From NCBI GenBank assembly GCA_009889585.1, contig WUQV01000172.1, forward strand, positions 1-24,000: 24,000 bases of DNA, written 5' to 3'. Below are positions 6,229 through 21,987 of this stretch, piece by piece. The notes below the pieces were generated by a model. The model made no database searches and was not told where the DNA came from. It worked only from the letters and a program-made list of their open reading frames with translations. The position numbers and the translations under genes were made by a program. Positions within the stretch are counted from its first letter, which is position 1. Every line of letters begins with the position of its first letter. This stretch comes from Candidatus Bathyarchaeota archaeon. Its GTDB lineage: Archaea; Thermoproteota; Bathyarchaeia; Bathyarchaeales; WUQV01.

Positions 6229-7506
6229 GTGAAGGAGGACGTGTCGCTCCAACCGAAGAGAACATCGTTACAACTCTATCGATTAAAAAAGTTACTGGAT
6301 TTTTTGGCAAGCAAAGAGGGAAGGGGAACGGAGTTAATCTCTCTATACATTCCGCCGGGTCGCCAAATCAGCGACACCGTGGCGATGTTAAGACAGGAGT
6401 ACGGAACGGCTTCTAACATCAAGTCCGATACGACGAGGAGGAACGTTCAAGACGCGCTTGTAAAGGTTATGCAACGCCTTAAGCTCTTTAAGGAGGCGCC
6501 TGAGAGCGGGCTCGTTATCTTCTGTGGAGCTATTCCACAAGATGGAGGGCCTGGAAGCGAGAAGATAGAAACTTACGTAATAATACCGCCTGAGCCGATC
6601 GACGTTTACTTATACCGTTGTGACTCAAGGTTTCACATAGAGTACTTACAGGAGCAGTTAAAGGAAAAGGAAGCTTATGGAATAGTCGTCATGGACGCTA
6701 GCTCGGCGACGATCGCTATATTAAAGGGCAAGAGGGTCGAAGTGGTGGAAGAGATAACCTCTGGCATCCCTGGGAAGCATAGGGCTGGAGGTCAATCCGC
6801 TAGGCGCTTCGAAAGGTTAAGGGAGATGAGGCTCATCGAATATTATTCCAGAGTTGGAAGGCATGTGAACGAGGCATTTTTAAGCGTGCCGGAGTTAAAG
6901 GGGATCATCATAGCAGGGCCAGGGCCTACGAAGTATGAACTTCAAAAAGGGGATTATCTTCACTACTCATTAAAAGATAAGGTTGTTGGAATAATAGATA
7001 CGGCGTACTCGGATGAGCAAGGGGTTGAAGAGGTAGTCGAAAAGGCGCCTGAGATAATACAAAGGGTTCGTTACGTTGAGGAGAAGCAAATAGTTCAAGA
7101 GTTCTTATATCATATCGGACATGATACAGGCTTAGCGACGTACGGCGAGGTTGAAGTTCGAAAGGCTTTGGATGCAGGGGTCGTGAGGACGTTATTGCTA
7201 TCCGAGGACTTAGAGATCCTTTGCGTGACGGTTCAATGCAGCTCGTGTGGATACGTTGAACGTCGCTCTATGAGAAGCGTCGACGTATTGAGCTTCAAAT
7301 ACGGCTTGGCAAAGGGATCGTGCGTGAGTTGCGGAGCTCAATCCATTTCGGCCATCGAGACGGAGGAATTAATCGAGGATTTAGCGAAAATAGCCGAAGG
7401 ACAAGGGGTTAACGTAGAAGTAATCTCTACGGAGACGGAAGAGGGGCAGATGTTGAAGAAGTCATTCGGAGGAGTTGCAGCGATACTTCGCTTCAAGCAA
7501 GGTTAA
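6229..7506 (+). CDS. prf1: Peptide chain release factor aRF1
   Basis: It has the TASNIKS stop-codon recognition motif, the GGQSARRFERLRE GGQ motif and GRGTELISLYIPPG. The C-terminal domain carries a Cys4 insert (CSSCG...CVSCG). The GTG start is uncertain. Confidence 0.95.
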   Translation: MKEDVSLQPKRTSLQLYRLKKLLDFLASKEGRGTELISLYIPPGRQISDTVAMLRQEYGTASNIKSDTTRRNVQDALVKVMQRLKLFKEAPESGLVIFCGAIPQDGGPGSEKIETYVIIPPEPIDVYLYRCDSRFHIEYLQEQLKEKEAYGIVVMDASSATIAILKGKRVEVVEEITSGIPGKHRAGGQSARRFERLREMRLIEYYSRVGRHVNEAFLSVPELKGIIIAGPGPTKYELQKGDYLHYSLKDKVVGIIDTAYSDEQGVEEVVEKAPEIIQRVRYVEEKQIVQEFLYHIGHDTGLATYGEVEVRKALDAGVVRTLLLSEDLEILCVTVQCSSCGYVERRSMRSVDVLSFKYGLAKGSCVSCGAQSISAIETEELIEDLAKIAEGQGVNVEVISTETEEGQMLKKSFGGVAAILRFKQG

Positions 7507-7526
7507 CGCTTAATGCTTCCTTGACG

Positions 7527-9995
7527 TTAACGCTCAATCATAATACGAACTTCAGGATGACCTTCAACAACCTTACCCTCGCCTTCCTTTAATGAAATTA
7601 TTAACTCTTGAGATTTACAAGCACCTATTACATCATCCTTTGCTAATGTAATTATATCGATTAGCTCTTCACTAGAGGTATAAACTATTAACCTCCTTAT
7701 CGAAGTATTAAGTGGCATTCTTCTCTCAGCCTTATGCTTTCTCACTTCACTAATCAAAGCCAAGATTAAATCACCATGACGTTCAACTATTTCATTAATA
7801 ATTCCTTCATCAACTATTGGCCATGGAGAAATATGAATACTCTTATAACCCTTATCTTCCGCATACATAACTTGATAAATCTCCTCAGTAATATGTGGCA
7901 TAAATGGTGCTAATAATTGTAATACTTTGTAAATGGCATTATATAATGCAAATTGTGCAGCTCTTCTTTTACCTTCACCATAAATTTCCAACCTATAAAG
8001 TCGATCCTTTACAGCTTCAATATACTTATCGCAAAGGACATGCCATGTGAAATTTCGAACTTCTTCTATCGCTACATTAAATTGACAATTCTCTAACGCA
8101 TCAGTTACCCTCTTTACGACTCGTTCAAGCTTGCTTAATAACCACTTATCCAAAAGCTGAAGTTCAATGCCCTTCTCTAACTTCGAATCGTAATCCATTA
8201 AGTGATAGCTTGCGAATCTAGCTGCGTTCCACAACTTCCTTATGAATCGACGGCCGTATTCAACGTCTGGCCAACGGAATGGGATATCGTAGCCCGTTGC
8301 TCCACCTGCTAAGGCCCATTGCCTCGTTGCATCGGCGCCGTATTTATCGATAACCTCCGGGGCAGCTACATAATTACCCTTAGACTTACTCATCTTCCTA
8401 CCGTCCGAGCCTAACACCATCCCGTTTATCAAGCAGCTCTTATACGGCCTTTCGTTGAAAAGGGCTAGATGATGAACCATTAAGTAATAAGCCCACGTCC
8501 TGATGATGTCGTATCCCGATGGATGTAAATCCGCTGGGAAAAGCTTACGCCAACCTTCTCGATCTGGCCAACCAGCGTGAATAGCGCACGTTAACGATGA
8601 GTCAAACCAAGTGTCTAACACGTCTCTTTCGGGGATGAACTCGAAGTGACCGCACTTCGGGCACTTCTCCACCTTAGGGGGCTCAACCCTAGGGTCTATC
8701 GGGAGCCAATTCGCTTCAGCGATGATGACCTCCTTGCACTTGCCGCAGTACCAAATCGGGATGGGGGTGGCGAAGACCCTTTGCCTTGACACTACCCAAT
8801 CCCAATCTAAAGAACGAGCCCAATCGATTAATCGATGCTTCATATGATCTGGATACCACTTAAGCTCTAAGGCGTTCCTTTCGACTTCATCGGTAAGAGC
8901 CCTCGTCCTCATAAACCATTGCTCCCTTTCTAAGATTTCAATCGGAGTTCCACACCTCCAACAAACGCCTACTTCTTGTTGAATATACTCAACTTTTTTC
9001 AATAATCCCTCGTTCTTTAAATCCTCAATTACAGCCTTTCTTGCTCCTTCTATAGTCATATTTGCATATTTTCCAGCTTCCTCATTTATCTTTCCATCAT
9101 GAGTAATACACATAATAATTGGTAATTGATTTCTCTTAACGACCTTAACATCTGCCTTATCACCATATGTACATATCATTACGACGCCTGTACCAAACTT
9201 CGGATCAACTGATTCTTCAGCTATAATCTCTACCACCCTCTTCACAATAGGCACTATGATTCTTTTTCCAATATATGATCGATATCTTTCATCAAATGGA
9301 TTTACAGATACAGCAACGCACGCTGATATAAGCTCCGGCCTCGTTGTCGCTATTATTAAACTTCCACCTTCCACAAGCTCAAACTCCATATAGTATAAAG
9401 CTCCATCTCTAGATTCATGCTCTACTTCAGCATCTGCAATTGCTGTCTCACATCGTGGACACCAATTAATTGGATGCATTCCTCTATATATGAACCCATT
9501 TTTATAAAGAGTAATGAATGATAATTGAGTTCTCCTCCAATAATTTGGATCCATTGTTTTATATTCTATCATCCAATCCACTGAACAACCTAATCGAATA
9601 ATGGCATTTTTCATTATATCAATATATTTACTTACGAGTTGCTCACAAAGCTTGCGAAACTCTTTCGGATGAACTTCAGCCTTCCTCATACCATAGCGCT
9701 CTTCTACTTCTACTTCAGTTGGAAGACCATGGCAATCCCATCCTTGTGGAAAAAGTACGTTGTAACCTTTCATGCGCTTATACCTAGCTACGACGTCAAA
9801 ATACGTCCAATTTAAAACGTTCCCCATATGGAAGTCTCCAGAGGGATAAGGAGGAGGAGTATCAATAGTAAACGTCGGCTTAGTCGTATCTTCCCAATCA
9901 AAACGATAAATGCCCGTCTCCTCCCATTTACGTTGCCACTTCTCCTCTACTTTGATTATATCGCATTCCTTAGGTAGGACCTTCACGTAAACCAT
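7527..9995 (-). CDS. valS: Valyl-tRNA synthetase
   Basis: This is a class I aaRS, with TIDTPPPYPSGDFHMGN (HIGH-type), PQGWDCHGLPTE and KMSKSKGN. The editing-domain motif ATTRPELISACVAVSVNPFDERY matches the ValRS TTRPET signature. At 822 aa it fits crenarchaeal ValRS. Confidence 0.9.
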   Translation of the reverse strand: MVYVKVLPKECDIIKVEEKWQRKWEETGIYRFDWEDTTKPTFTIDTPPPYPSGDFHMGNVLNWTYFDVVARYKRMKGYNVLFPQGWDCHGLPTEVEVEERYGMRKAEVHPKEFRKLCEQLVSKYIDIMKNAIIRLGCSVDWMIEYKTMDPNYWRRTQLSFITLYKNGFIYRGMHPINWCPRCETAIADAEVEHESRDGALYYMEFELVEGGSLIIATTRPELISACVAVSVNPFDERYRSYIGKRIIVPIVKRVVEIIAEESVDPKFGTGVVMICTYGDKADVKVVKRNQLPIIMCITHDGKINEEAGKYANMTIEGARKAVIEDLKNEGLLKKVEYIQQEVGVCWRCGTPIEILEREQWFMRTRALTDEVERNALELKWYPDHMKHRLIDWARSLDWDWVVSRQRVFATPIPIWYCGKCKEVIIAEANWLPIDPRVEPPKVEKCPKCGHFEFIPERDVLDTWFDSSLTCAIHAGWPDREGWRKLFPADLHPSGYDIIRTWAYYLMVHHLALFNERPYKSCLINGMVLGSDGRKMSKSKGNYVAAPEVIDKYGADATRQWALAGGATGYDIPFRWPDVEYGRRFIRKLWNAARFASYHLMDYDSKLEKGIELQLLDKWLLSKLERVVKRVTDALENCQFNVAIEEVRNFTWHVLCDKYIEAVKDRLYRLEIYGEGKRRAAQFALYNAIYKVLQLLAPFMPHITEEIYQVMYAEDKGYKSIHISPWPIVDEGIINEIVERHGDLILALISEVRKHKAERRMPLNTSIRRLIVYTSSEELIDIITLAKDDVIGACKSQELIISLKEGEGKVVEGHPEVRIMIER

Positions 9996-16046: not shown

Positions 16047-17528
16047 GTGGAGGGCTTAAAGGTCGCGTGCGGCGTGTTCGGAGCCGCGGACTTCGAAGGT
16101 CGATCGGTTTTCCCGCTCATTTACTGGGGGTTAAGGGCTCAAAACCATCGAGGCCATCAGTCGTATGGCTTCTTAACGTACGATAGAGGATTTCACGTTC
16201 ATAAGAGCTTGGGGTTGATACCGAAGTTGAAGGCCGGCGTAATGCAAAAGCAGCTTAAGCGTTTAATTGGACACGTAGGCATTGGAAACGTTAGATATAC
16301 TACGTCAGGAGGAGCTGATGAGCGATCACTAATGAAAAATGCACAGCCAGTTATAGCAGAGTATGAGAGGAAAAAAGTTGCTATTTCATTTAATGGGAAT
16401 GTAGTAAACATCATTCAATTGAAGGATGAGTTTAATAAATTGTTCTTAAATATTACGTATGAATCCGATATGGAGTTAATATGTTATGAAATTCTTAAGG
16501 GGATGTTAAAGGTTGGAGATTTAATGGAATCAGTGAAGGCTTGCATAGAGGAGCTGGAGGGCGCTTTCTCCGTCGCTGGCGTGACTGAAGACGGAACTTT
16601 CTTCGCTTTTAAAGACCCTTATGGCATAAGGCCCCTTTGCGCTGGATTTAGCGAGGACCGTAACGCTTACGCCGTCTCCTCTGAAAGCGTCGGGTTAGAC
16701 ATTAACGACCTTACGTTTGATTTCGAAGTGGAGCCAGGGGAATTAATCGTCGCTACGAACGATGGCTTCGAACGGAGTAAGCTCGTTAGCGGTAGAAGGA
16801 AGGCCTTTTGCGCTTTTGAATTCGCTTATTTCGCAAGGCCTGACTCCCGCCTCGGGGATAAGTACGTTTACGAAGTTAGGGAGGAGTTCGGAAGGAATCT
16901 AGCTTCGGAGTACGCAGACGTAGCGAGGGGTGTTGACGTAATCCTTTCCATGCCTGAGACGGCTGAGGACGCTGCGCTAGGCCTTCATGAGGCGACTGGC
17001 TTAAGGTGGGAACGAGCTTTACGAAGGCATCGCTACGTCACGGAGAGGGCGTTCATCCTCCTGCCGGCTGAACGATATGAGACCGTTGGGAAGAAGGTAA
17101 ACGTCCTCGCCTCGAAGATACGTGGAAAACGCGTAATCGTAGTAGACGATAGCATCGTTAGAGGGGATACGACAAAGGTTATCGTAAGGAGGTTGCGTAA
17201 AATGGGCGCTAAGGAGGTTCACTTGTTCATAACGTTCCCACGAATTAGAGGACCTTGCTTTTATGGAATTGATATGGCAACTTATAGTGAGTTGATTGGC
17301 TCAATGCATGAGCCACATGAAATAGCTGAGATAGTAGGTGCAGATAGCGTAAATTATCAATCTGTGAATAATTTTGTAAAGGCAACCGGATTTAGTGAAA
17401 ATGAGCTTTGCTTAGGTTGCGTAACGTTAAATTATCCAACGCCATTAGCACAAAAGCTTGCAGATGAAGGGTGGAAGAGAGTTCAAGAAGGGCAAGTAGA
17501 AGTAGGGAGATTATACGAGTGTAGTTAA
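16047..17528 (+). CDS. purF: Amidophosphoribosyltransferase (glutamine PRPP amidotransferase), Fe-S type
   Basis: A short propeptide precedes the catalytic Cys (MEGLKVA-CGVFGA). It also has NAQP...NGNVVN and the PRPP loop VIVVDDSIVRGDT. Cys residues at the positions of the 4Fe-4S ligands are FCAFE, PCFYGID and CLGC. The start is GTG. Confidence 0.95.
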   Translation: MEGLKVACGVFGAADFEGRSVFPLIYWGLRAQNHRGHQSYGFLTYDRGFHVHKSLGLIPKLKAGVMQKQLKRLIGHVGIGNVRYTTSGGADERSLMKNAQPVIAEYERKKVAISFNGNVVNIIQLKDEFNKLFLNITYESDMELICYEILKGMLKVGDLMESVKACIEELEGAFSVAGVTEDGTFFAFKDPYGIRPLCAGFSEDRNAYAVSSESVGLDINDLTFDFEVEPGELIVATNDGFERSKLVSGRRKAFCAFEFAYFARPDSRLGDKYVYEVREEFGRNLASEYADVARGVDVILSMPETAEDAALGLHEATGLRWERALRRHRYVTERAFILLPAERYETVGKKVNVLASKIRGKRVIVVDDSIVRGDTTKVIVRRLRKMGAKEVHLFITFPRIRGPCFYGIDMATYSELIGSMHEPHEIAEIVGADSVNYQSVNNFVKATGFSENELCLGCVTLNYPTPLAQKLADEGWKRVQEGQVEVGRLYECS

Positions 17529-17847: not shown

Positions 17848-18745
17848 TCAGCTTTATCTAGATCAAGAAATTTACGGCATCCTGAGATAATATTCTCTTA
17901 TACTGTTCCATAAAGGACTCCACCAAGAACGTGGGGGAGTTTTGTATGCATTACTACATTACAAGGCGTTTCCTTTAAGCTATTTTTGCTTTTCTTAATA
18001 TTAAAGCGCGCCGACCACGTTGATTTTCCATAGCAAGTTCAAATGGTTACCAACTTTAGTCAGGAGGGAACCTACGTGTACCACTTTTGACCAATTTATT
18101 CCATCTCAGGCTTAAGTAAGTTGTAGGAATTTAGGCGAGTAGTGAATTTATGGATAACTCAGCGGGCTTTCTTCAAAGGTTCCTCTTATTACGTCTAGTT
18201 TCCTTATAACAGACTTTAATCTTAACAGCCATATGAAAGAGCTTTATGCAATGTAAAGATAATTAACTATGCGGCTTCGAACCTTTTAAGTTCAAATTAT
18301 TTTAACCTAAATGATCCTCATCGCTGTCCTTTAAATTAGCCGTACAAAACTACCACGCTTGTGCTGAGAACAGGAAACGTCATCACTTCCATCAAGTTTC
18401 TTAAAATGTGAAATGCCTAGGCTTCTATGGCAAAGTCTAGAATAGAAACCGCTTATTAAGCTTAATATTAAGCATACAAGAAATCTTCAACAATCTAGCA
18501 TGAAAGCAATTAAAACCTTAAGAAAAAGTCAAAGGATGAATCGCAAATTCTATTGCATACATGGCACTTATTGCAGCATAAATTAGTAGCAAAGTCTGCC
18601 TAGGCTTTATAAGCTTTTATAACCTTAGAATTAATCCCTTATGGCTTGCTAGGAGTGAAAGCTATATATTTTGCTAAAGCCGATGCTACCCAGGGTAATA
18701 AATTAACTTACTCTGCTTGCAAACCTCACTAAGTGTATATAAGCC

Positions 18746-19174
18746 TTAATCGGATTTATTTTCCTCATAAGTTTTCGTTATTTTCTTCTTGAAAAGAAAC
18801 TCTAATTGAGACATGACTTTAACTTCATATTTTTTAAGCAATTTCCTTGCTTTTTTATCACTTGTAATCACTATGTCTGCATTTATTGTCTTCGCTAAGT
18901 TTACAAGATGAGAATCATCTATTTCCTCAGGAAGAATTCTAACAAGTTCCTCATCCCTTTTCATGATAAGCTGACCTTGCTCTTTTAAACGATCTAACTT
19001 TCTCATGACTGATAGTGGTGATAGACCTTCTTCTCCAATATGCCTTTCATACTCATCACTTAATCTTCTGCAAAGGGCTACAGTGATCTTCTCCTGCTTT
19101 GCTTTATTAATAATACACTCTCCTAAGTACTTCTTAAGGAAGGAACAAGCATCGATTACCACGGTTTTCTTCAT
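18746..19174 (-). CDS. PIN-domain nuclease (predicted effector of the ATPase-PIN pair)
   Basis: KTVVIDACSF gives the strand-1 Asp, SDEYERHIGEE is an acidic helix, and EIDDSHLVNLAKTINADIVITSDKKARKLL gives the Asp-x3-hydrophobic-A helix followed by the hydrophobic-T/S-x-D strand. This is the canonical PIN layout. Its ATG directly abuts the upstream stop codon (TGAATG). Confidence 0.7.
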   Translation of the reverse strand: MKKTVVIDACSFLKKYLGECIINKAKQEKITVALCRRLSDEYERHIGEEGLSPLSVMRKLDRLKEQGQLIMKRDEELVRILPEEIDDSHLVNLAKTINADIVITSDKKARKLLKKYEVKVMSQLEFLFKKKITKTYEENKSD

Positions 19175-20497
19175 TCATACCTTACTCGGAATAGTCTCTT
19201 CCCATTCTCTTAATAACCTGCGCTCAACTTCAAAGAAAGATGGAATATAGCCTTTAATGTAACCATACTCGTTTAACATTAGTTTCCTTGCAAAGGTACC
19301 TTTACTTCCTTTCTCGATCTCATAGACTGCTATAAGGTCATTTGGATCTTCATAAGGGCCCTCTTTAATAGCTAGCTTTACGGCCCTACTTAATGCCATA
19401 GGCAGTATGGTACTGTGAGTAGTCGCAATTATTTGCTTACCAAATTTAACTGCGTCATAAAACATTAAAGGCAATTGCGATACCGCTTCCGGATGAAGGC
19501 TTATCTCAGGTTCTTCTATCAATATCAAACCTTGATGAGGCCAGAACAACTGACAGATTACACTTAATGCCTGTCTGGCTCCATGACTTGCTTGTGCTAA
19601 CTCAAGCACCACGTTTAATTTGTCATCCTGATAATCAGAGCCAAGCTTATGTGAGCCTCGGAATCCAGCATATAAATCTATGATTCTTAAATCACTAGCC
19701 CATCTTTTAACGGCGTCCCATTCTTCCCTATATCGTCTTGAGCTAGATAGAATTGATAAACATTCGATTAAATTTTCTCCTGCTAATCCCATCTCTCTAG
19801 GGCTCTTTGAGTCATCGCCATAGTAGGGCGTTCTTCCTCTTATTGGAGAAAGAAGTGCAACTCTACTGACGTAGTTATGTACTAACTCATTCTGTATTAA
19901 CTTGACAATTCTCATAGAAAGTTTGGAGCGTGGCTCACATTCTTTAAGCTTTTCCTCATCCTCCTTTGGAGCAGATAACATAAAGGCTCCTGGACTTAAT
20001 AGATGAGGGTTACTTGCGTATATCTCCTTATATTCTTCAGGTTTAAGAACCATGTACTTACCTTCAGCTAGGCCTATTCTAAGCACGGTTTGATCATTTA
20101 TACTGACTTCCTGGGCTGCATATTCATGTCCATATGCTATCTCCCAACTTAAATAGGAATTTTCCCTTATCGTGATTCCAACTTCGCTAGCTAGATATTG
20201 TAATTCTTTAAAAGAATCGGTTGGAATGGTAGAGATAATCTTAAATATTATCGGATTTTTAGAAGACGCTTTATGAAAAATCATGTCTTCATTTTCATAC
20301 TTAGGCTCTATTGCCCACAAACTATGGATATATGCCGTTCCTGTCAATATTCGTGACAGCCTCCATATTGCTTCAAGAATGTTAGACTTTCCTGAGCCCG
20401 TGAGCCCGAAAAGTAGCGTTATTGGCTTAAGCTCTAACTCCACCCCAGGCTCACTACCTATGCTTTTGAAGTTTTTTACTACGAGCTTAACTAGCAT
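19175..20497 (-). CDS. SMC/RecF-like ABC ATPase (AAA_15/AAA_21-like, with a COG4938/DUF3696-like C-terminal tail)
   Basis: The motifs are VKNFKSIG...LLFGLTGSGKSNILEAI (Walker A), LLSPIRGRTPYYG (YLGPLR-type motif), QASHGARQAL (signature-like), GLILIEEPEISLHPE (Walker B/D-loop) and IIATTHS (H-loop). The C-terminal tail reads LNEYGYIKGYIPSFFE. Confidence 0.85.
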   Translation of the reverse strand: MLVKLVVKNFKSIGSEPGVELELKPITLLFGLTGSGKSNILEAIWRLSRILTGTAYIHSLWAIEPKYENEDMIFHKASSKNPIIFKIISTIPTDSFKELQYLASEVGITIRENSYLSWEIAYGHEYAAQEVSINDQTVLRIGLAEGKYMVLKPEEYKEIYASNPHLLSPGAFMLSAPKEDEEKLKECEPRSKLSMRIVKLIQNELVHNYVSRVALLSPIRGRTPYYGDDSKSPREMGLAGENLIECLSILSSSRRYREEWDAVKRWASDLRIIDLYAGFRGSHKLGSDYQDDKLNVVLELAQASHGARQALSVICQLFWPHQGLILIEEPEISLHPEAVSQLPLMFYDAVKFGKQIIATTHSTILPMALSRAVKLAIKEGPYEDPNDLIAVYEIEKGSKGTFARKLMLNEYGYIKGYIPSFFEVERRLLREWEETIPSKV

Positions 20498-20523
20498 GCC
20501 TCATAACTAAAGGAACGAACTGA

Positions 20524-20530
20524 CTTAAAT
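20524..20530 (-). promoter_or_regulatory. TATA-box-like element (ATTTAAG on the minus strand) about 27-33 nt upstream of the ATPase ATG
   Basis: Seen in the sequence. The spacing fits an archaeal TATA box for a leaderless or short-leader transcript. There is no BRE analysis and no experimental support. Confidence 0.25.
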
Positions 20531-20732
20531 CCGTATCTGAAGCAGGAGTCATCACGCTTACGCATGATCTCCGAGAAGCCGTGAAGATTGAAGCGTTAAA
20601 CAAGGTCTAACTCTCACGCAGGCGGTAGGGGCTGCGTTACGGAAGTGGCTTGAGCTTTCTGATGCGGAGAGAAAGAAGAGAGCCGAAGGAGGAGGATGGC
20701 TACGCCAAAACCACCTTTTTAACGCGTGCTAG
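20524..20732 (+). pseudogene. Ribbon-helix-helix (CopG/antitoxin-like) gene, frameshifted and lacking an obvious start codon
   Basis: Frame 1 reads SVSEAGVITLTHDLREAVKIEALNKV then a stop at 20608. Frame 3 opens at 20592 and reads KQGLTLTQAVGAALRKWLELSDAERKKRAEGGGW... to a stop at 20730-20732. Joined by a 1-nt shift, these give a textbook RHH (beta strand ITLTHDL, helix REAVKIEAL, helix LTQAVGAALRKWLE). There is no ATG, GTG or TTG upstream in frame 1. Confidence 0.4.
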
Positions 20733-20952: not shown

Positions 20953-21273
20953 TTAACGACAAAGCCTTCTTCTCCTCGGCATTCGTCTAAGATATGTAGA
21001 TCTGCTAAGTATCTTATTGCTCCTTAAGGAGATGACTAAGCGGAATCCCTCGAATTCGGGTTCAGCCCTCTTTGTCCCTAGCACTACCAGCACTGGCTCG
21101 CCAGCCCTTGTACAATACCTTGAAGCTACGACTTCTGGACTATCATCAGGCTTAAAGAACTCCTCAATACATTCGCAATACCCAACAACTCCCTGACGAT
21201 AAATGCGTAATTCTCCATCATAATTCTCTAAAGTGAACTCTTCATTCTTCCAAAATGCTAGCTTGACCATCAT
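20953..21273 (-). CDS. Hypothetical protein (orphan ORF; the C-terminal 25 aa look like read-through)
   Basis: This is a 106-aa ORF only, with no recognised motif. The Arg-rich low-complexity end (YLRRMPRRRRLCR) suggests decay. Confidence 0.3.
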   Translation of the reverse strand: MMVKLAFWKNEEFTLENYDGELRIYRQGVVGYCECIEEFFKPDDSPEVVASRYCTRAGEPVLVVLGTKRAEPEFEGFRLVISLRSNKILSRSTYLRRMPRRRRLCR

Positions 21274-21564: not shown

Positions 21565-21987
21565 CTATGAAGGTGCGTTGCTATAGTGCCGGAGCCAGTG
21601 GTCCAAGAAGCCACCACGCATGAGGTAGACCATTAAATGATCTGTAGCAATTAATTGTACTACTTGAGGAGGCGAGCATTGTGCTTTGTGTATAACTTCC
21701 TTCTTGATTATCACTATCGACTCGGGTATTATCTCCCCTATTGTTCCGAGCTCATTTCTTCCTATTTCCCTCAACTTTGCCTCAAATTCTATATAAACAC
21801 TTGTTCCATTGGGGAAATGTATGTAAGTTATTCCATACACCCTAGGACCCTCTGTATAAATGCGAAATATATGCTCTTTAGGGCTCTCTGCGGGGTTGCT
21901 AGCAACTAAAGGGGCATTGGTTCCTGCAAGAGTAGTGATGAAGATAACGACGGAGATTATGGCTGCTAATTTCTTGAACCGAGACAA
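21565..21987 (-). CDS. Hypothetical secreted or membrane-anchored small protein
   Basis: The N-terminus is signal-like: MSRFKK followed by the hydrophobic stretch LAAIISVVIFITTLAG. I recognise no family. Confidence 0.45.
   Translation of the reverse strand: MSRFKKLAAIISVVIFITTLAGTNAPLVASNPAESPKEHIFRIYTEGPRVYGITYIHFPNGTSVYIEFEAKLREIGRNELGTIGEIIPESIVIIKKEVIHKAQCSPPQVVQLIATDHLMVYLMRGGFLDHWLRHYSNAPS

Follow-up and report, generated by a model that had tools for sequence, protein, structure and literature searches.

We analyzed a 24,000-nucleotide stretch of the genome of a Candidatus Bathyarchaeota archaeon (assembly GCA_009889585.1, contig WUQV01000172.1, positions 1 to 24,000; hereafter, the window), in which two minus-strand genes between purF and purQ encode an ATP-binding cassette (ABC) ATPase and a stand-alone PIN-domain protein (Table 1). 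The TGA of the ATPase gene is followed directly by the ATG of the PIN gene with zero spacer, so that the minus strand reads gtaTGAATGaag. An earlier reading made from the letters alone (the sequence-only reading) had proposed these genes as a candidate two-gene antiviral or abortive-infection system; both open reading frames (ORFs) were found at the positions it gave, and the TGAATG junction and every motif that it quoted are present.

The large protein is an ABC ATPase

The first gene encodes, as had been proposed, an ABC ATPase of the SMC/RecF-like type; it falls in the AAA_15/OLD-ABC class. It matched Pfam AAA_15 (PF13175) with 71 bits against a cut-off of 32.1 (E = 1.9e-19) and AAA_21 with 59.5 bits (E = 7.7e-16), while SMC_N/AAA_23 were matched at the N terminus. 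An AlphaFold2 (AF2) model computed from the family alignment had a predicted local distance difference test score (pLDDT) of 94.8 and a predicted template modeling score (pTM) of 0.92. When this model was compared with the PDB by Foldseek, the heads of Rad50, SMC, condensin and cohesin were recovered together with PtuA and GajA at E values of ~1e-12 to 1e-11, the PtuA structures coming from Septu and retron complexes.

The ATPase motifs are complete. GLTGSGKSN lies at residues 31–39, LLSPIRGRTPYYG at 215–227, QASHGARQAL at 302–311 and YGYIKGYIPSFFE at 411–423. The Walker B motif has Glu instead of the usual Asp and retains the catalytic Glu. When 36 homologous ATPases were aligned, the core residues listed in Table 1 proved invariant, as did R220, the signature-like G306 and Q309 and the tail residues G412, E425 and W432. 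The C-terminal end of the AF2 model consists of two β-strands (389–406) followed by a helix (419–435) on which the PIN partner may dock, judging from the Menshen ATPase NsnB, itself an AAA_15 protein whose C terminus forms a helical tail (Li et al. 2025, PMC12065111). Pfam DUF3696 was not detected in the tail of the window ATPase.

Among PADLOC models, that of NsnB was the best match for all 36 family ATPases, with a best E value of 3.6e-50; family-wide, the runners-up were AriA (1.9e-34), PDC-M55A (1.2e-31) and the HEC-03 ATPase model (2e-30). The match of the window protein to NsnB was modest in score (80 bits, E = 4.9e-23) and ran as one full-length stretch, joining residues 1–424 to positions 1–334 of the 345-position profile.

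The small protein has a PIN fold

The product of the second gene is a PIN-fold protein of the PIN_3 type with an intact acidic tetrad, D8-E41-D87-D106, in agreement with the sequence-only reading. Its Pfam PIN_3 match was barely over the threshold (28.7 bits, cut-off 27), with PIN_9 and TIGR00305 also touched. Its AF2 model, an alternating strand–helix domain, scored lower than that of the ATPase (pLDDT 78.8, pTM 0.72), and the 15 best Foldseek matches in the PDB were all PIN domains or PIN-family hypothetical proteins (probability 1.0, TM score 0.56–0.68). The leading matches include 2mdt, 1o4w, 1y82, SMG6 (2hww) and VapC4 (5h4g), and the structural relatives comprise SSO1118, AF0591, Pyrococcus PIN proteins, PAE2754 and a Mycobacterium tuberculosis VapC (5x3t). 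The motifs VVIDACSF, EYERHIGEE and IDDSHLVNLAKTINADIVITSDKK occupy residues 5–12, 41–49 and 85–108, respectively.

Sequence relatives of this protein are few. A single-sequence, word-indexed search returned only the protein itself, and PIN partners were therefore recovered through synteny with the ATPase and by exhaustive phmmer, which found 13 others at E <= 1e-3 among 1.84 billion 50%-cluster representatives. In eleven of these relatives aligned to the window PIN, D87 never varies and E41, H89 and N92 hardly do; the positions of D8 and D106 usually carry Asp, with Asn in some. A profile of the PIN family gave only spurious weak matches to PDB sequences, indicating that no close relative has a solved structure. 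The only PADLOC matches of the window PIN were weak ones to PDC-S70.

The ATPase and PIN genes form a conserved operon

To place the pair in a wider context, one genome per GTDB species was scanned, which yielded 80 loci. ORFs were called in all of them, profiles were built for the ATPase and, iteratively, for the partner, and the gene directly downstream of the ATPase was tabulated. A PIN-family ORF stands in that position in 38 non-redundant archaeal and bacterial loci, which bears out the expectation that the pair would be syntenic in other genomes. The commonest spacings between the two genes are +1 (ten loci), –4 (five) and 0 (three). ATPases scoring above ~250 bits to the family profile nearly all have such an ORF directly downstream, the exceptions being L019, L031, L043 and L046; the partner in L039 was seen by the profile and missed by the gap filter, and L025 holds a truncated ATPase. 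Likewise, a PIN_3-type gene follows the ATPase homologues of 35–47% identity in every metagenomic or metagenome-assembled genome (MAG) contig examined, including a Sulfolobales MAG and a Methanomethylicaceae MAG. Distant AAA_15 ATPases (<100 bits, from Brachyspira, Streptomyces and others) have an unrelated partner of ~200 amino acids instead, and the PIN partner therefore defines a clade.

Archaeal hosts of the pair are Bathyarchaeia, Sulfolobales, Methanomethylicaceae, Methanosarcinales and ANME-2 (anaerobic methanotrophic archaea), Methanoperedens, Methanophagales, Syntrophoarchaeum and one Halobacteria MAG. Bacterial hosts are Chloroflexota/Dehalococcoidia, Terriglobia, 'Candidatus Angelobacter' and one deltaproteobacterial MAG. 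The ATPases of Chloroflexota/Dehalococcoidia are shorter, at 340–355 amino acids, and the β-rich insertion of ~100 residues that separates the long from the short forms is, from this length difference and the AF2 model, a candidate sensor.

Pairwise distances of ATPases and PIN proteins are correlated across 31 loci (Pearson 0.74, Spearman 0.27; none of 2,000 Mantel permutations reached the observed value), and the two genes have therefore traveled together. The ATPase and PIN genes are a conserved, tightly abutting operon whose pairing is not due to chance.

The PIN active site varies within the family. Of 45 distinct PIN partners, 33 have D at the first acidic position, 28 have E at the second, 29 have D at the third and 18 have D at the fourth. 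The full D-E-D-D set occurs in the window PIN, its close relatives and the partners in L007, L041, L039 and L050. PIN partners of Methanosarcinales carry D-R-D-D, those of Methanophagales and Syntropharchaeia carry D-E-D-N, and those that accompany the short ATPases of Chloroflexota carry D/N-E-H-R. No alternative effector domain is present in any of these partners, Chloroflexota included. Given this loss of acidic residues and the lack of another effector domain, the PIN protein in part of the family may serve for binding or have a changed chemistry, a point for which any model must account.

Table 1 Coordinates of the ATPase–PIN operon, its motifs and related loci. Residue numbers are those of the encoded proteins; L numbers denote loci of the survey and are followed by positions within the locus.
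Feature	Position	Strand	Evidence or remark
ABC ATPase ORF, 440 aa	19175..20497	(-)	ORF list; Pfam AAA_15, AAA_21
Walker A / P-loop GLTGSGKS, residues G31–S38	20384..20407	(-)	G31, G36, K37 and S38 invariant in 36 homologues
Walker B and D-loop LILIEEPEISLHPE, residues 324–337	19487..19528	(-)	E328, E329, P330, E331, S333 and H335 invariant in 36 homologues
H-loop ATTHS, residues 358–362	19412..19426	(-)	T360 and H361 invariant in 36 homologues
C-terminal α-helical tail, residues 419–435, after conserved GYIKG-IPSF motif	19193..19243	(-)	AF2 helix
TGAATG junction, ATPase stop abutting PIN start	19172..19177	(-)	Sequence
Stand-alone PIN-domain protein (PIN_3-like), 142 aa, presumed nuclease effector	18746..19174	(-)	ORF list; Pfam PIN_3
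Span of the four PIN acidic residues	18857..19153	(-)	D8 19151–19153; E41 19052–19054; D87 18914–18916; D106 18857–18859
PsyrTA-adjacent loci	L092:223-4434, L094:1-4492, L020, L022, L024
Chloroflexi pheS–pheT loci	L029:4933-10068, L036:3308-8469, L037:4918-10995, L038:4313-10111, L041:33-4598, L049:116-5055, L025
Methanosarcinales-type truD loci	L014:7632-9008, L015:2929-4308, L017:7681-9039

The window copy lies in a low-GC island

The GC content is 0.35–0.40 across positions 18000–20500, compared to 0.47–0.52 in the flanking purF (16047..17528) and purQ/purL; the segment that carries the ATPase–PIN copy and separates purF from purQ is a low-GC insert. The description of a low-GC, gene-poor island therefore held, and judged from this insert, the window copy looks acquired. 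On the 3′ side of the PIN gene, ~900 nt of AT-rich DNA (17848–18745) contain no ORF of at least 40 amino acids, no tRNA and no Rfam match; this segment may be what decay has left of the inserted DNA. Weak inverted repeats (17982–18004 and 18462–18484) were the only ones seen in it. A search of the island for integration scars turned up neither convincing direct repeats at its flanks nor a tRNA or Rfam match.

Between the ATPase gene and purQ are two small minus-strand ORFs, 20953..21273 (106 amino acids) and 21565..21987 (140 amino acids), the product of the latter having a hydrophobic N-terminal segment. Neither has a Pfam match and homologues of both are absent from the related loci; the two may have arrived as cargo of the same low-GC insert, or they may be spurious ORFs. 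Divergent from the ATPase start, a frameshifted plus-strand reading at ~20524–20730 (VITLTHDLREAVKIEALNK / GLTLTQAVGAALRKWLELSDAERKKRAEGG) resembles a ribbon–helix–helix (RHH) protein by eye and had been called a decayed antitoxin-like gene. It was rejected as a part of the system, being frameshifted, without a Pfam RHH match and without a counterpart found by tblastn in the related loci.

Related pairs occur in mixed genomic contexts

Within the window clade, the pair in L002 adjoins a type IIG (MmeI/Eco57I-like) methylase–restriction gene. DUF87 ATPases and a protein with an Mrr domain lie near the pair in L006, an N6-methylase and an insertion sequence element near that in L007, and a C5 methylase, DUF87 and Csf3 beside that in L097. 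The Sulfolobales MAG locus L004 holds a second, convergent pair (6373–7998, minus strand) ~500 bp downstream of the first. It encodes a 351-amino-acid AAA_15 ATPase that matches DUF3696 weakly (E = 0.0027) and a 189-amino-acid protein whose PIN-like signals are weak (DUF5615, and a score of 18.7 bits against the family PIN profile), and is possibly an NsnB/NsnC-like module without NsnA.

In Methanophagales and Syntropharchaeia, the pair stands directly downstream of PsyrTA (PADLOC PsyrT, 1e-171; PsyrA, 3e-75). The PsyrTA genes there encode a RecQ-PRTase helicase and a DprA-like protein, and the pair is followed by a gene for a 572-amino-acid protein with two ABC_tran domains. An assignment of the upstream genes as housekeeping recQ–dprA repair genes was dropped after the PADLOC scan identified them as PsyrT and PsyrA.

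The genomic context of the family is mixed overall, being defence- or mobile-element-like in some lineages and housekeeping in others. Placement near defence genes, which the sequence-only reading had suggested checking, holds for the lineages with restriction–modification, PsyrTA or DUF87/Mrr neighbors and fails for Chloroflexi, in which the pair resides stably between pheS and pheT.

An ATPase-controlled PIN nuclease is the favored mechanism

We interpret the operon as an ATPase–nuclease conflict module of the class that joins an OLD-ABC ATPase to a small nuclease, in which the PIN protein would exert the antiviral action; we assign this reading a probability of roughly 0.6. The ATPase, with its Walker A, Walker B Glu and H-loop intact, would probably act as a dimer or tetramer, and its C-terminal helical tail would hold the PIN protein and keep it inactive. 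Upon sensing a trigger, for example a viral protein or a nucleic-acid structure, the ATPase would pass through an ATP-dependent conformational cycle that releases or activates the PIN nuclease. The PIN protein would then cleave RNA. Its most plausible substrates are tRNA and rRNA, with tRNA ahead on the example of PARIS, Septu and VapC toxins, and the ensuing translation arrest would abort the infection. The complex, what triggers it, which RNA it targets and its antiviral role are all inferred, while the folds, motifs, adjacency, co-divergence and closeness to NsnB are direct results of the present analysis.

The antiviral reading is supported by the variable, defence-like neighbors of the pair in L002, L004, L006, L097 and the PsyrTA loci and by the low-GC insert that holds the window copy. 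It is also supported by HEC-03, in which an ABC ATPase and a VapC-like PIN protein, encoded by two genes, protect Escherichia coli from phages and neither gene is dispensable (Payne et al., bioRxiv 10.1101/2024.01.29.577857). Docking of the PIN protein on the ATPase tail is suggested by the conserved C-terminal helix of the family together with the Menshen proteins. There, the PIN-like domain at the N terminus of NsnC is described as inactive and is fused to a toxin, and in AlphaFold3 (AF3) models this domain docks on the NsnB tail (PMC12065111). As for the RNA target, tRNA degradation is reported for PARIS (PMC10802454) and cleavage of tRNA-Tyr for Septu (PMC13096335), and tRNA is accordingly a sensible guess for the PIN protein. 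The idea that a PIN nuclease fills the effector slot stands insofar as an ATPase-controlled nuclease, as in Septu and PARIS, is the most economical mechanism; it did not predict the loss of PIN acidic residues in several clades.

Several observations weigh against this antiviral reading. The acidic set is incomplete in many PIN clades, for example in Methanosarcinales and Chloroflexota. None of the 36 PIN partners is recognized by any PADLOC model, those of HEC-03 and NsnC included; kinship of the effector with validated systems is therefore unsupported, and current tools would call neither HEC-03 nor Menshen at these loci. Viral carriage is nearly nil, with one weak match in IMG/VR. In Chloroflexi, the pair sits inside the pheS–pheT operon and is stable there across species, with PheS encoded upstream in L029, L036, L037 and L038 (and as a fragment in L041) and PheT downstream in L025, L029, L036, L037, L038, L041 and L049. 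An extra gene resembling 2-hydroxyacid dehydrogenases is part of the arrangement in L037 and L049. Identities among these species are ~50% for PheT, 36–49% for the ATPases and 20–35% for the PIN proteins, and the low PheT identity shows that the arrangement is ancient. Similarly, truD, the gene for tRNA pseudouridine synthase D, always lies downstream of the pair in Methanosarcinales-type loci. Such stability in pheS–pheT and beside truD is unusual for defence cargo and for that reason speaks against a defence role.

A domesticated, housekeeping form of nucleic-acid surveillance would accommodate these contexts. The targets of the pair would then be the cell's own RNA or DNA and not viruses, for instance during repair or during quality control of tRNA or translation, and the PIN protein may contribute binding instead of nuclease activity, at least where the pair is chromosomally fixed. 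The old residence in Chloroflexi pheS–pheT, truD in Methanosarcinales and L098, in which the pair lies between an aminotransferase gene and that for ribosomal protein L35Ae, all favor this explanation, as do the degraded acidic residues of several PIN clades and the resemblance of the ATPase head to Rad50 and SMC. However, synteny kept within one lineage can also reflect a neutral old insertion, and contexts in the window clade are variable, non-syntenic and in several cases defence- or mobile-element-like. The window copy itself is a low-GC insert in a pur cluster, its PIN subfamily is rare and patchy (the 13 representatives noted above), and the closest characterized relatives of the ATPase are all defence proteins. 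We regard surveillance as an improbable account of the family.

Doubtful as well is an addiction module of the toxin–antitoxin (TA) kind, with a VapC-type PIN toxin and the ATPase as a large antitoxin, which would stabilize a DNA segment with no dedicated virus sensing. PIN_3/TIGR00305-like families are annotated as TA toxins, the two genes abut as in TA operons, and the Pfam label of AAA_21 is 'putative AbiEii toxin, type IV TA'. More distant PIN_3 proteins carry a classic small antitoxin-like gene upstream, and long persistence after insertion in essential operons would fit addiction. Nevertheless, a motif-complete, deeply conserved ABC ATPase of 440 residues exceeds what neutralization needs, and it is kept even in clades with degraded PIN acidic residues, for which a role purely as an antitoxin gives no explanation. 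The boundary between TA and abortive infection is blurred, and this explanation overlaps the antiviral reading that we favor. Capture of a VapBC-like toxin by a sensor ATPase, raised by the sequence-only reading, is possible as an origin, but the family is old and co-diverging and no recent capture is seen. Chance adjacency of a functionally unrelated ATPase and PIN protein is excluded for practical purposes by the 38 non-redundant loci from many lineages, spacings of a few bases and the correlated divergence of the two proteins.

Implications

If the antiviral reading is right, the family would extend the immune design of an ABC ATPase with a nuclease into archaea (Thermoproteota-like lineages, methanogens and ANME), for which few defence systems have been tested. 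It would also offer a simple two-protein model of how an NsnB-type ATPase handles a PIN-fold partner, with a PIN protein that could plausibly still be an enzyme and not just an inactive adaptor. The Chloroflexi pheS–pheT pair with its degraded catalytic residues is a concrete test case for the domestication of an immune or toxin module. Current ideas are not overturned, as the design principle was established by HEC-03, Menshen, PARIS and Septu; the interest lies mainly in a possible link to the origin of Menshen and in the ancient residence in Chloroflexi pheS–pheT.

That link can be drawn as a speculative scenario, which we consider unlikely: the family might be a stand-alone, ancestral-like core of Menshen NsnB–NsnC, in which the ATPase first ruled an active PIN nuclease. 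Bacteria would later have killed the PIN domain, fused toxins to it and added NsnA, while Chloroflexi would independently have domesticated the pair in pheS–pheT. Were this true, the Chloroflexi copy with its degraded PIN protein would point to a cellular role linked to tRNA or translation.

Comparison with known systems

The pairing had been put forward as one not recognized as a named system. This did not hold, since HEC-03, the pairs in BREX neighborhoods and Menshen NsnB–NsnC had already been described. HEC-03 (Hma-embedded candidate 03, with models in PADLOC-DB v2) shares with the family the adjacent genes for an ABC ATPase and a PIN protein, and its ATPase model matches 36 of the 36 family ATPases. 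That model is, however, not the best one. On the window protein (8.2e-13, compared to 4.9e-23 for NsnB) it is outranked by NsnB, AriA, AbiLi, HEC-01A, Old, PDC-M25A and PDC-M55A, and family-wide it ranks fourth (2e-30 compared to 3.6e-50). At E <= 0.01, no HEC-03 model has a match among the 36 PIN partners. The hosts differ too, HEC-03 having been discovered inside bacterial Hachiman loci, whereas the window family is mostly from archaea and Chloroflexota. The PADLOC model PDLC04148, labeled HEC-03B, aligns to the ATPase from Walker B to the C-terminal part, while in the preprint the ATPase is HEC-03A and the PIN protein HEC-03B; the labels look mismatched between the two sources, and the order of the genes may differ.

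Menshen (Millman et al. 2022) has been catalogued in bacteria only. NsnB is the best PADLOC model for every member of the family, and in both cases the gene after the ATPase begins with a PIN-fold domain. The two ATPases also appear to share an Arg at the Q-loop position (R220 in the window protein) and a Glu at the Walker B Asp position, equivalences that come from inference and not from superposed structures. They differ in that Walker B reads EE here, with the catalytic Glu kept, compared to EN in NsnB, and in that the DUF3696 tail is undetected. The partner here is a bare PIN protein of 130–165 amino acids without a C-terminal toxin, and the window copy keeps D-E-D-D, whereas every NsnC PIN-like domain is reported to be catalytically dead (PMC12065111). 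NsnA (ParB-DUF262 with ParBDB) is absent directly upstream of the window ATPase, elsewhere in the window and from the related loci with Pfam-annotated genes, and no DUF262 occurs among the called genes of L001–L007. Nor is DUF262 among the 25 commonest of 144 neighbor families in 36 loci, a ranking that leaves room for rare occurrences.

PARIS (AriA and AriB), Septu (PtuA and PtuB) and Gabija/OLD resemble the pair in having the same broad class of ABC ATPase in control of a nuclease, and models or structures of AriA, PtuA, GajA and Old all match the window ATPase. The matches to AriA, PtuA and GajA run mainly from Walker B to the H-loop and are weaker than that to NsnB. The effector fold is PIN rather than the Toprim of PARIS or the HNH of Septu, and neither Pfam nor PADLOC gave a match of the partner protein to AriB (DUF4435/Toprim). 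VapBC shares the VapC-like PIN fold, the acidic tetrad and the tightly packed two-gene operon; it differs in that a small DNA-binding VapB antitoxin takes the place of the 440-residue ABC ATPase upstream, the RHH-like remnant in the window being on the opposite strand. Pairs of an OLD-ABC ATPase and a PIN endoRNase in BREX neighborhoods, described as a backup effector layer (PMC12839542), have by their description the same domain pairing as the window family, and no BREX core genes were found beside the family pairs in the loci examined.

Judged by profile comparison, the family is closest to the NsnB–NsnC core of Menshen and analogous to HEC-03. It would be assigned to neither, with PIN proteins unrecognized by PADLOC, no NsnA and no toxin fusion. 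The ATPase–PIN family is a distinct one, found mainly in archaea and Chloroflexota, within a design of OLD-ABC ATPase and nuclease that has already been described.

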